This document shows positions 12,978 to 37,042 of a stretch of 64,000 nucleotides of DNA, piece by piece (position 1 is the stretch's first letter; each line of letters begins with the position of its first letter). The notes under the pieces were generated by a model. That model worked only from the letters and a program-made list of their open reading frames with translations, ran no database searches and was not told where the DNA came from. The stretch is taken from contig QCHY01000006.1 of the NCBI GenBank assembly GCA_003216975.1, positions 13,972 through 77,971 on the forward strand. The letters run 5' to 3'. Made by a program: the position numbers and the translations under genes. This DNA is from Prochlorococcus sp. AG-402-I20 (lineage in GTDB: Bacteria > Cyanobacteriota > Cyanobacteriia > PCC-6307 > Cyanobiaceae).

Positions 12978-14213
12978 ATGTTAAATAATTCTCTTGTACT
13001 TGGTGTTGATTTTGGGACATCGGGCGTAAGAATAGCAATCATTAATACTAAAAAAAAATTACTATTTACATCATCAAAAACATACTCTAAAGGTCTTGAG
13101 ATATCTGAAGACTGGATCAATTGCCTCAAAAATATTATAAACGAAATTCCAAAAAATCTAAAAGAGAAATTGGTTTCTTGTTCAGTAGCGGGGACATCTG
13201 GAACACTTCTAGCATGCAAAAAGAATGGCGAACCTCTTGGGAAAGCTCTACCTTATTTCTTATCTTTTGCGGAATATTCATATGAGATTAAAAAGCTATT
13301 TACAAAAGAATGTGCCGGCTCAAGCATCAGTGGAAGTGTTAGCAGAGCACTTAAACTTGTAGACTTATATGGTAATGAAATAATCTTAAGGCACCAAGCA
13401 GATTGGATTAGTGGATGGCTTATCAATAATTGGGAGTTTGGTGAAGAAGGTAACAATATTAGGATGGGTTGGGGAATATCAAATAATTCATGGCCAAAAA
13501 ATTTTCAGAATTTAAAATGGTTCAAATGTCTTCCTAAAATACTTCCTTCAGGCCATATAATGGGAAATATATGTAATAAAAAAGCCCATGATTTAGGTTT
13601 GCCAAAAAATCTTAAAGTAATTGCAGGAACTACAGATTCTAATGCTGGTGTTTTAGCCACTTTTCCTAATAAAGATGATGGGATAACAATTCTGGGCAGC
13701 ACAATAGTGATAAAGAAGTTTGTTGATAAGACCCTTTCAGGGAAGGGCATCTCGAATCATAAATTATTAGGGAATTGGCTATCTGGTGGGGCATCTAATG
13801 CAGGAGCTGCAATACTACTAGAATTCTTTAATCTTGAATATATTGAAGAATTAAGCAAACAAATAAATCCTAATAAATCAACAGGATTAAATCTTCTTCC
13901 ATTATCAAGTCAAGGAGAAAGATTTCCAATAGATGACCCAAATTTACAACCTAAACTTGATCCAAGACCAGTCAGTGATTCTCTTTATCTTCATGCATTA
14001 TTTGAAGGATTAGCGAAAATAGAAGCAAGAGGTTGGCAAAAACTTAATGAATTAGGTGCTGATTTACCTAAGCAAATAATTACTGTTGGAGGAGGTGCGA
14101 AAAATATTACGTGGAAAAAAATTAGAGAACGAGAAATCGGTATACCAATAAAAATATGCAATACCCCCCCCGCAGCAGGAGTAGCGAGAATTGCTTTGCA
14201 AGGATTATTATGA
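12978..14213 (+). CDS. FGGY-family carbohydrate kinase (ribulo/xylulokinase-like)
   Basis: GVDFGTSGVR, AGTTDSNA, TVGGGAKN motifs. Confidence 0.88.
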   Translation: MLNNSLVLGVDFGTSGVRIAIINTKKKLLFTSSKTYSKGLEISEDWINCLKNIINEIPKNLKEKLVSCSVAGTSGTLLACKKNGEPLGKALPYFLSFAEYSYEIKKLFTKECAGSSISGSVSRALKLVDLYGNEIILRHQADWISGWLINNWEFGEEGNNIRMGWGISNNSWPKNFQNLKWFKCLPKILPSGHIMGNICNKKAHDLGLPKNLKVIAGTTDSNAGVLATFPNKDDGITILGSTIVIKKFVDKTLSGKGISNHKLLGNWLSGGASNAGAAILLEFFNLEYIEELSKQINPNKSTGLNLLPLSSQGERFPIDDPNLQPKLDPRPVSDSLYLHALFEGLAKIEARGWQKLNELGADLPKQIITVGGGAKNITWKKIREREIGIPIKICNTPPAAGVARIALQGLL

Positions 14214-34319: not shown

Positions 34320-35237
34320 GATTTTTTAAATATTTCTGGAACACAATCAAAAACCTATGATTACAAAAAAGCTAGATTAGGAATTATTGGAGGAAGCGGA
34401 CTATATAGGATAGAAAATCTTAAAAACATAGTCGAATTAAGCTTAGACACTCCCTATGGAAAACCTTCTAATAAGTTACTAATAGGAAATCTCTTTGGAA
34501 TAGAGATTGTTTTTCTAGCTCGCCATGGAGAGAAACATACTTTAAATCCAAGCGAAATTCCATATAAAGCAAATATCTGGGCTATGCGCTACCTAAATGT
34601 TAGATGGTTAATATCGGCATCAGCTGTGGGGTCATTAAAAGAAAATATCAAACCTTGCGACATTGTCATCCCTGATCAATTTATTGATCGAACTCATCAA
34701 AGGCCATTGACTTTTTTCAACAATGGAGTTGTAGCTCACATAAGCATGGCAAATCCTTTTTGCGAAGTTCTTTCTCAAATTTTGTCGAAAGAAATAGAAA
34801 AACTTTTAACCAAAGAAAAAAAAATGCATATTGGAGGAACATATCTTGCTATGGAAGGACCAGCATTTTCAACAAAGGCAGAATCAAACTTATACAGAGA
34901 TTGGGGATGTTCAATCATAGGAATGACAAACCATACTGAAGCACGATTAGCAAAAGAAGCTGAAATCGCCTATTCAAGCCTATCCATGGTTACTGATTAT
35001 GATTGCTGGAATCAAAATTGCGAAAATGTATCTGTCGAGATGGTTATTGAGAATCTTCAGGAAAATGCAAATTTTGCAAAATCAATAATTTCTGCTGCTG
35101 CTAAAAGGATTTCATCATTGAGGCCTTCAAGCTCTTTTCATAATGCATTAAAAAATGCTCTAGTTACTCCAAAAGAGCACGTACCAAATAAAACTAAAGA
35201 CAAGATAAAATTATTTACAGATAAATATTGGCTTTAA
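34305..35237 (+). CDS. mtnP: S-methyl-5'-thioadenosine phosphorylase
   Basis: GIIGGSG, FLARHG, NIWAM, MEGPAFSTKAES, GMTNHTEARLAKE, VTDYDCW; start uncertain (34275/34281/34305). Confidence 0.92.
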   Translation: MITEHDFLNISGTQSKTYDYKKARLGIIGGSGLYRIENLKNIVELSLDTPYGKPSNKLLIGNLFGIEIVFLARHGEKHTLNPSEIPYKANIWAMRYLNVRWLISASAVGSLKENIKPCDIVIPDQFIDRTHQRPLTFFNNGVVAHISMANPFCEVLSQILSKEIEKLLTKEKKMHIGGTYLAMEGPAFSTKAESNLYRDWGCSIIGMTNHTEARLAKEAEIAYSSLSMVTDYDCWNQNCENVSVEMVIENLQENANFAKSIISAAAKRISSLRPSSSFHNALKNALVTPKEHVPNKTKDKIKLFTDKYWL

Positions 35238-35272
35238 AAAACCAACCGACAAAAATTGTCAGTTGGTTGTTT
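35237..35272 (-). terminator. Terminator between convergent mtnP and psbJ
   Basis: On - strand AACCAACUGACAA/UUGUCGGUUGGUU stem (one G-U) followed by a U-run. Confidence 0.7.
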
Positions 35273-35310
35273 TAAGTTATTTCAAATAAATAGTATTTTT
35301 CTAGTTAAAA

Positions 35311-35519: not shown

Positions 35520-35639
35520 TTAGTTAAAGAAGTAACTGGAAAAAAGAATTCCCATTACAAAAACAAGTAAGAGTCCAAGATAAAGACTTGTTCGGTTTAA
35601 TTCAACCGGAACTTTATTTGGATTTGGATTGACTTGCAT
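35520..35639 (-). CDS. psbL: Photosystem II protein L (not in ORF track)
   Basis: Manual translation [39 protein letters not shown]. Confidence 0.96.
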
Positions 35640-35669
35640 GGATAGTAAAAGCAATCAGATGAAATTGGG

Positions 35670-35918
35670 TTATTTCAGACGCGTGTCAAGTTCAGCCTTG
35701 GAATCAAAGCGCTGAACAACAACAGGAGCTTTGCTTTCTCCAGCCTGAAAATACGTATCTGGTCTAGGAGTTCCAAAAGCGTCGTAGGCAAGCCCAGAAG
35801 ACACAAATAGGAATCCTGCCACGAAGATCGCAGGAAGTGCAACCGCATGGATAATCCAATAGCGGACACTAGTAATGATCTCAAAAAACGGGCGTTCCCC
35901 GGTAGAGCCGGCAGCCAT
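35670..35918 (-). CDS. psbE: Cytochrome b559 alpha subunit
   Basis: [21 protein letters not shown] (heme-ligand His), [12 protein letters not shown]. Confidence 0.98.
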
Positions 35919-36025: not shown

Positions 36026-37042
36026 TCAACCCTGCCATCGCAGTAAATTCCCCCTTTCTCCAAATACAAATCCCTTAGGACTGTCACTATTTAAATCGTC
36101 CACAAATAGAATTCTGATGAAATTTGTTGGAACAGATTCACCAACAGGGTCTTTTTCCCAAGTTTTTCCATCATCATTGCTTACTAATAATGTTCCACTA
36201 CCTCCCGCTGCCCAAATCGACTGAGATGGATCCCAAACTAGATCTTGATAGTTGTACCCATTGACGATTGGGATTATGGGCTTTGACCAGGAATCGACAT
36301 CATCAGGATCTGCATTGAATCTGATTTCAGCTCCTCTAGAAAGCATCCATAAATCACCATTTGGCTGCTCGCCAACACTTTGAACTCTTTTACTACTTGC
36401 TCTTTGATGAGGTCTCCATGTCTCTTCTCCTGGGTTTAGAACCGAGAAGAAGTTCCCAAGGCTACTAACACTTATATAGCCACCATTATTTGTGCGTCTT
36501 AATTCTCTTATACCTCCTGAACCTGAGGTATCAACAACTAATGCTTCCCAATTTGTACCAGCATCAGTTGTTTTATAAATTGCTCCAGCAGTGGTTGCCA
36601 GCTCAGCAGAATCAGTATCAATTGTTGTTATCAGATATGGATCTCCTGGCAACTTATTTCCCAAATCGATACGAGTCCAAATTTTCCCTCCATCAGTTGT
36701 ATGAAGAATTAATCCTGGTTGACCTGCAATCCAACCTTCTTGACCTTTGAAATCAACGCTTATCAAACGAAAGTTGCCTTCGCTTGGAATATCTAAATTT
36801 CTTTCATTCCACGTAATCCCTCCATCATTTGTCTCCAGAATTAACCTATTCGTACCGACTAAAAACCCATTTTTATCATCTACGAAGTCAACATCCAGTG
36901 GATTTGCCTCAGTATCAAGATCGACTAGTAACCAAGGGCTTGATGAACCCATGGAGGCATTGCTAACAGTACAACCACTAAGAGTTAATCCAACTATTAA
37001 GACAAGGGTCAAATTAATGACATTTGAAAACAGACGTTTCAT
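36026..37042 (-). CDS. ycf48: Photosystem II assembly factor Ycf48/HCF136
   Basis: Lipobox LSGC, repeated GW/GFxVG...LILxTxDGG beta-propeller units; upstream of psbE. Confidence 0.94.

Follow-up and report, generated by a model that had tools for sequence, protein, structure and literature searches.

Photosystem II (PSII) of a Prochlorococcus clade may operate with an unusual cytochrome b559, the evidence for which begins in a 64,000-nucleotide stretch of Prochlorococcus sp. AG-402-I20 (positions 13,972 to 77,971 of contig QCHY01000006.1, assembly GCA_003216975.1). This stretch, referred to here as the window (C6:13972-77971), belongs to an assembly of 43 contigs that is about 92% complete and carries the PSII genes psbE, psbL and psbJ. 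The psbF gene, which encodes cytochrome b559's beta subunit, is missing from this operon, and its absence has been confirmed as biology rather than artefact. The genome belongs to the low-light I (LLI, NATL-type) Prochlorococcus genus, all examined members of which lack canonical psbF, and the PsbF homologue of this genus is a two-helix "long form" with asparagine in place of the heme-ligand histidine. This fusion of a PsbY-like and a PsbF-like helix probably takes the place of the beta subunit (and of PsbY) in PSII, in which case heme b559 would be absent or not bis-His ligated.

The operon resembles the canonical psbE-psbF-psbL-psbJ arrangement in its upstream ycf48 gene, in the order of psbE, psbL and psbJ, and in the heme His24 kept by PsbE (RYWIIHAV). 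The full psbEFLJ gene order is absent from the window, which holds E-L-J only, and the genome departs from the canonical alpha/beta cytochrome b559 in having neither psbF nor any His-bearing beta subunit. Canonical psbF is a coding sequence of about 140 nt for a protein of about 45 residues with a single helix. The initial annotation had remarked that the 30-nt gap between psbE and psbL is too short for psbF, and both the coordinates and the sequence of the gap proved to be exactly as described. Its identification of psbE, psbL and psbJ is borne out by Pfam, PsbE does retain its heme His, and the window contains no cytochrome b559 domain besides psbE.

Distribution of psbF in the genus and its relatives

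No canonical psbF open reading frame was found in the whole assembly of 43 contigs, either by a domain search or by a sensitive six-frame search with a canonical PsbF profile. The domain search recovered only psbE and one match on contig C33, with which the six-frame hidden Markov model (HMM) search agrees. In 18 relatives from the same genus, a search with Pfam PF00283 returned psbE and, mostly, one weak and distant match, and psbF never adjoined psbE; the same search in cyanobacteria of other families returned the usual adjacent psbE-psbF pair. Comparison of the junction with relatives, as the initial annotation had proposed, revealed psbE followed by psbL after 29 nt in four closed genomes of the genus, with nearly the same sequence as in the window. 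Overall, the spacer measures 29-30 nt in five genomes of the genus, versus 160-171 nt with psbF included in two comparison genomes (G088 and G053). A genome of a sister-level genus (G033, genus g16) has a junction of 34 nt and likewise no canonical PsbF.

A broader survey with the TIGR01333 model covered 201 genomes of the family, each at least 90% complete. On the scale of this model, 74-88 bits are typical of canonical PsbF and about 64 of the paralogue. A canonical-strength match was missing from each of the 15 genomes in the NATL-type genus (g1; eight of them closed) and from G033; 14 of the 15 and G033 carry one match of long-form strength, and the draft genome G017 carries none. A canonical-strength match was present in the remaining genera without exception (34/34). 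Combining this survey with the PF00283 search of the 18 relatives, canonical psbF was found in none of 28 genomes of the genus. Among individual genomes, MIT 1012 has the weak, long-form match only, and MIT 0603, MIT 9322, SB, SS51, MIT 9107 and one Synechococcus metagenome-assembled genome have both. A published supplementary table of MIT9312 genes (PMC6517427), the last column of which is taken to be NATL2A, lists consecutive accessions for PsbE (WP_011294296.1) and PsbL (WP_011294297.1). In the same table no orthologue is given for the canonical "cytochrome b559 subunit beta", and the "PsbF-like protein", as the long form is called in MIT9312, corresponds to WP_011294880.1.

These data bear directly on the possibility that the gap results from a collapsed assembly, or that psbF resides in unassembled sequence, which the draft state of the AG-402-I20 assembly might by itself allow. 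Synteny is intact on both sides of the junction, and the published orthologue table agrees independently. The absence is not an artefact because eight closed genomes of the genus, four of them inspected at the junction, show the same junction or the same missing canonical match, and the artefact explanation is thus effectively refuted. Of the origins considered in the initial annotation, an assembly or editing artefact is rejected, since the 29-30 nt junction recurs in the four closed genomes and none of the 28 has a canonical match, and a natural clean deletion is supported, but as a clade-wide rather than a strain-specific event.

A five-protein tree (1,282 columns) joins g16 to g1 and HLII, in an order that it does not resolve, and nests all three in a well-supported clade together with SS120 and MIT 9211; psbF may have been lost once or twice. 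Between g1 (spacer of 29-30 nt) and G033 (34 nt), only the 3' half of the spacer is in common, TGAT..TTTATTATCC, which looks like the psbF stop codon followed by the old psbF-psbL spacer. The 5' halves are unlike each other, so the two breakpoints may not be the same. The spacer in the window may retain the tail of psbF (TTCATC..TGA).

The long-form paralogue and the loss of psbY

The 97-residue protein encoded on contig C33 is a member of the NCBIfam family NF002717, "cytochrome b559 subunit beta, long form", with a match of 173.4 bits (cut-off 153) over residues 3-97 of 97. It passes the PsbF models only narrowly (TIGR01333, 64.0 vs 61.15 bits; PF00283, 36.8 vs 30). The protein begins with a PsbY-like helix and ends with a PsbF-like one, and the loop between them, some 35 residues long, carries the conserved motif N.Q.WED. 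For its C-terminal 34 residues, the alignment to all PsbF entries of the PDB is free of gaps, and the PsbF-like helix differs from the canonical one at only four positions. The canonical motif RWLAVH reads RTLAVN in the long form, replacing a Trp with Thr and the heme-ligand His with Asn. The ligand position is Asn in 57/57 distinct long forms, the Trp is Thr in nearly all of them, the PsbF-like helix is almost invariant, and 35 alignment columns are invariant in total. No solved PDB structure contains the long form; an AlphaFold model built from 33 sequences places helices at residues 2-26 and 62-91, with a pLDDT of 61.6 and a pTM of 0.39, and was used for secondary structure only.

Conservation of the long form extends over its entire length in Prochlorococcus of the LLI, LLII/III and HL groups and in part of marine Synechococcus, and an "extra copy of PsbF" acquired early in Prochlorococcus evolution has been mentioned in the literature (bioRxiv 10.1101/2020.11.24.395392). 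Since canonical psbF is present alongside it in SS120-type, MIT 9211-type, HLII and other genera, the long form is a distinct and older paralogue rather than psbF in a new place. The suggestion that psbF might lie elsewhere in the genome was correct insofar as a PsbF homologue does exist on C33, and does not hold as a relocation, given that this older homologue lacks the heme His and accompanies canonical psbF in other lineages. The C33 protein shares with the NF002717/NF002720 long forms its full length, the two-helix layout and the Asn at the ligand position. The difference lies in its company: in most clades the long form is an extra protein beside psbF, whereas in this genus and g16 it is the sole PsbF homologue. 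In this clade it is encoded by a solitary gene that has a terminator-like hairpin to itself, neighboured by genes for flavodoxin and small membrane proteins; no mini-ORF follows it at this locus.

Two further observations concern the long form and its surroundings. A predicted membrane protein of 144 residues is encoded beside the long form and transcribed divergently from it; the MIT9312 pair PMT9312_1175/PMT9312_1176 corresponds to consecutive accessions in the column taken as NATL2A, and both transcripts drop under leachate stress (PMC6517427). This membrane protein may partner the long form functionally. In a draft genome of another genus (G040, genus g23), the long form keeps the Trp and has Asn at the ligand position (RWLAIN), scoring 74 bits with TIGR01333, and may represent an intermediate state; no psbE match was obtained in that draft.

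A relationship of the N-terminal helix to PsbY is suggested by profile comparison. When the N-termini of long forms were compiled into a profile, this matched a PsbY profile over 25 columns beginning at the first residue of each (hhalign probability 95%, E = 2.9e-8), and control comparisons with PsbL, PsbJ, PsbF and PsbE all remained below 3%. With Pfam alone, the helix gave no match in this clade and at best E = 0.038, in an HL variant, below the Pfam cut-off. The long form resembles PsbY (PF06298) in the profile match of its N-terminal helix, and differs in that this helix falls below the Pfam cut-off and is fused to a PsbF helix, in a clade without a stand-alone psbY. PDB entry 7ymi, whose chain F (99 residues) is named "Photosystem II protein Y", was considered as a precedent for such a fusion and discarded: the chain aligns to PsbF over residues 11-47 and has no PsbY similarity, the accompanying paper is silent on the matter, and the name is probably a labelling quirk.

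No stand-alone psbY (PF06298; a gene of about 40 codons) was detected in any g1 genome or in G033, and a six-frame search of the AG-402-I20 genome with general and Prochlorococcus-specific PsbY profiles produced only noise. Elsewhere in the family PF06298 matches occur in almost every genus, and genera carrying both forms of psbF are among them. In MIT 9211 and SS120, psbY sits between a tRNA gene and the gene of an FAD enzyme of about 435 residues, and at the syntenic interval here, outside the window, the tRNA gene is kept and psbY is deleted. Both genera without psbF are thus also without stand-alone psbY, and both retain one fusion of a PsbY-like and a PsbF-like helix.

The features discussed are collected in Table 1. 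Within the operon, psbL starts at the ATG at 35639 and not at the upstream TTG proposed by the open reading frame lister; the resulting PsbL N-terminus, MQVNPNPN, is common to most representatives compared. The hairpin located 3' of psbJ likely marks the end of the psbE-L-J transcript: none of 200 shuffled sequences folds equally well, and the hairpin was not called by a simple consensus terminator scan.

Table 1. Positions of the operon genes, the long-form genes and related loci (positions without a prefix refer to the window).
Feature	Position	Strand	Evidence or remark
ycf48 (PSII assembly factor)	36026..37042	minus	open reading frame; Pfam PF14870, 441.8 bits; upstream neighbour of the operon
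psbE (cytochrome b559 alpha), 82 aa	35670..35918; stop 35670-35672	minus	Pfam, 64 + 58 bits; TIGR01332, 118 bits
psbE-psbL spacer, 30 nt	35640..35669	minus	reads CCCAATTTCATCTGATTGCTTTTACTATCC; replaces the canonical psbF of other clades
psbL, 39 aa	35520..35639; ATG 35639-35637	minus	PF02419, 82 bits
psbJ, 65 aa	35311..35508	minus	PF01788, 57.5 bits
terminator-like hairpin and U-run, 3' of psbJ	35234..35275	minus	-19.3 kcal/mol, z = -6.2
long form, 97 aa	contig C33, L002:868-1161 (outside the window)		NF002717, TIGR01333, PF00283
144-aa predicted membrane protein	L002:237-671	minus	
psbY syntenic interval	C4:30247-30736 (outside the window)		
long form of G040	L120:496-795		
His-to-Gln psbE	L143:5057-5329 (G064); L150:5169-5441 (G043); L151:4688-4960 (G031); also L152-L156, L167		

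Heme ligation and the probable role of the fusion protein

The most probable explanation for this gene content is that the His-less fusion serves as the beta subunit. The long form would occupy the PsbF position beside PsbE in the PSII of this clade and probably also fill the neighbouring PsbY position. PsbY crosses the membrane from the lumenal to the cytoplasmic side, and PsbF in the opposite direction; since PsbY ends on the side on which PsbF begins, the order of the fusion fits this topology. PsbY adjoins PsbE in PSII, as described in PMC10889353. Because only PsbE could then supply a ligand His, cytochrome b559 could not be bis-His ligated, and its heme would be either absent, giving a natural apo-b559, or held otherwise, perhaps with the His of PsbE as its only ligand. 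Assembly of PSII would go on even so, since it depends structurally on the alpha and beta polypeptides and not on the heme. The long form predates the split of the clades, and its age and its coexistence with psbF elsewhere suggest that it was probably already an alternative beta subunit, which this clade kept alone.

Experimental work on Thermosynechococcus elongatus makes such an arrangement feasible. According to Sugiura et al. (2015, cited through PMC4709441), the PsbE mutants H23A and H23M contain apo-b559 only, yet have wild-type levels of active PSII. The resemblance is that one axial His is gone with both polypeptides present, and the PSII of these laboratory mutants, altered on the alpha side, still assembles and is active. 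The situation described here differs in being natural, on the beta side, fixed in a clade and accompanied by an added PsbY-like helix.

PMC4709441 cites Pakrasi et al. (1990) for the finding that deletion of the beta subunit destabilises PSII in Synechocystis. This argues against a PSII that dispenses with any beta-type subunit and a long form unrelated to PSII, an explanation that is very improbable. It would also have to contend with the purifying selection on the long form, which is very strong and falls precisely on its PsbF helix, and with the MIT9312 long-form transcript, which declines together with other PSII genes under stress (PMC6517427).

The state of PsbE is informative in several respects. 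Two substitutions, T27A and T41S, are common to g1 and g16 and absent from 15 PsbE sequences of other genera that were compared. T27A lies three residues past the heme His, where a change from T to A occurs in only 2 of 80 further PsbE sequences, at a position that has been a target of mutagenesis in T. elongatus (T26P). These substitutions could be co-adaptation or shared ancestry. The heme-side residues Arg19, Tyr20, Trp21 and His24 are all kept in both genera.

In three other small-genome genera (G064, closed; G043; G031), the PsbE heme His itself is replaced by Gln (FWVIQ[IV]V). The substitution is also found in five further single-cell Prochlorococcus genomes; the single-cell genomes named with it are AG-363-P15, AG-363-K07, AG-439-E13, AG-409-B13, AG-463-P14 and AG-363-A16. 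In these lineages Arg19 has become Lys or Asp and Tyr20 has become Phe, and PsbF keeps its His in the motif RFFAVH. The His-to-Gln genera carry no long form in the TIGR01333 survey. Here a b559 ligand has independently been lost for a second time, and this separate removal on the alpha side makes a dispensable bis-His heme b559 more plausible in parts of the group.

The conserved heme side of PsbE opens the way to two other readings. In the first, the long form serves as beta subunit and the heme stays in place, five-coordinate with PsbE His24 as its ligand or with a sixth, weak one supplied by the Asn amide or by water; this differs from the best explanation in heme status alone and would yield a functional cytochrome with altered redox properties. 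It would explain why the heme-side residues of PsbE are fully kept in g1 and g16 when the His-to-Gln lineages altered Arg19 and Tyr20, and why both natural ligand replacements, Asn in beta and Gln in alpha, are amides and not random. Asn is nevertheless a poor heme ligand, the heme-pocket Trp adjacent to the ligand is Thr in nearly all long forms, and PsbE is so conserved overall that a kept His says little. Heme retention is a possibility to which only a minor share of the probability belongs.

In the second reading, two PsbE chains bridge the heme through two His, forming an alpha2 cytochrome, and the long form is separate, for example an assembly or repair factor. Heme-binding PsbE homodimers have been reported in heterologous expression, PsbE His24 and all heme-pocket residues are kept in the clade, and the long form, coexisting with canonical PsbF elsewhere, may have its own job. 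Against this, the long-form helix is near-identical to that of canonical PsbF save for two heme-side residues, as would be expected if selection maintains the PsbF packing site; just two changes in PsbE are specific to the clade, too few for a second and different site; and the lumenal PsbE tail of about 40 residues would need to fit the beta position. An alpha2 cytochrome is altogether unlikely and ranks behind a takeover of the beta position by the long form.

Several points weigh against the fusion as a His-less beta subunit and must be set beside the evidence in its favour. The AlphaFold model of the long form is of low confidence (pLDDT 61.6). PsbE here keeps Arg19, Tyr20, Trp21 and His24, of which the His-to-Gln lineages changed Arg19, Tyr20 and His24, and this hints, mildly, at a retained heme. 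In MIT 0603, where both proteins occur, the long-form helix is the same as here, and so it remained unchanged after the loss of psbF; this could equally mean that the long form has a different, unrelated role. The loss of psbY need not be tied to that of psbF either, as a genome of another genus (G049, genus g32; L127/L140; 99% complete) has canonical psbE-F-L and neither psbY nor the long form, so that psbY can be lost without a replacing fusion. Finally, heme-ligand mutants of Synechocystis do not accumulate PSII, as stated in PMC4709441. On balance, the replacement of PsbF by the His-less fusion is still the probable functional reading of these genes.

Implications for photosystem II

Parts of this picture are already known: the long-form family has been named by NCBI, and the extra PsbF copy is mentioned in the literature. 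In the open-access literature searched, including Kettler 2007 and a 2024 light/oxygen study, no mention of psbF or psbY loss in NATL-type strains was found, nor any functional study of the long form. Added or tested here are the co-loss of psbY at its syntenic site, the table with the column taken as NATL2A, the substitutions in PsbE and the lineages in which the PsbE His has become Gln. A practical consequence concerns annotation, where the label "cytochrome b559 subunit beta" on the long form masks the loss of canonical psbF.

Cytochrome b559 is described in PMC4709441 as an essential PSII component of all oxygenic phototrophs. The genomes of NATL-type strains can supply only one of the two heme ligands, with two small subunits merged into one. 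The fullest interpretation, which is put forward tentatively and may well prove to go too far, is that PSII of the LLI clade has no functional b559 heme, that a His-less PsbY-PsbF fusion replaces two subunits, and that other lineages lost the alpha ligand independently. If true, heme b559, regarded as universal in PSII, would be naturally dispensable. The physiological role of cytochrome b559 is a long-standing question, and a culturable natural lineage enables direct comparison with sister clades; NATL-type strains are held in culture collections and belong to a globally abundant clade. Should the heme be absent, the cost of a heme-free PSII in photoprotection and repair becomes a question that can be asked. 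Such a loss would also bear on models of adaptation to low light and low iron, in which every heme avoided is iron saved.
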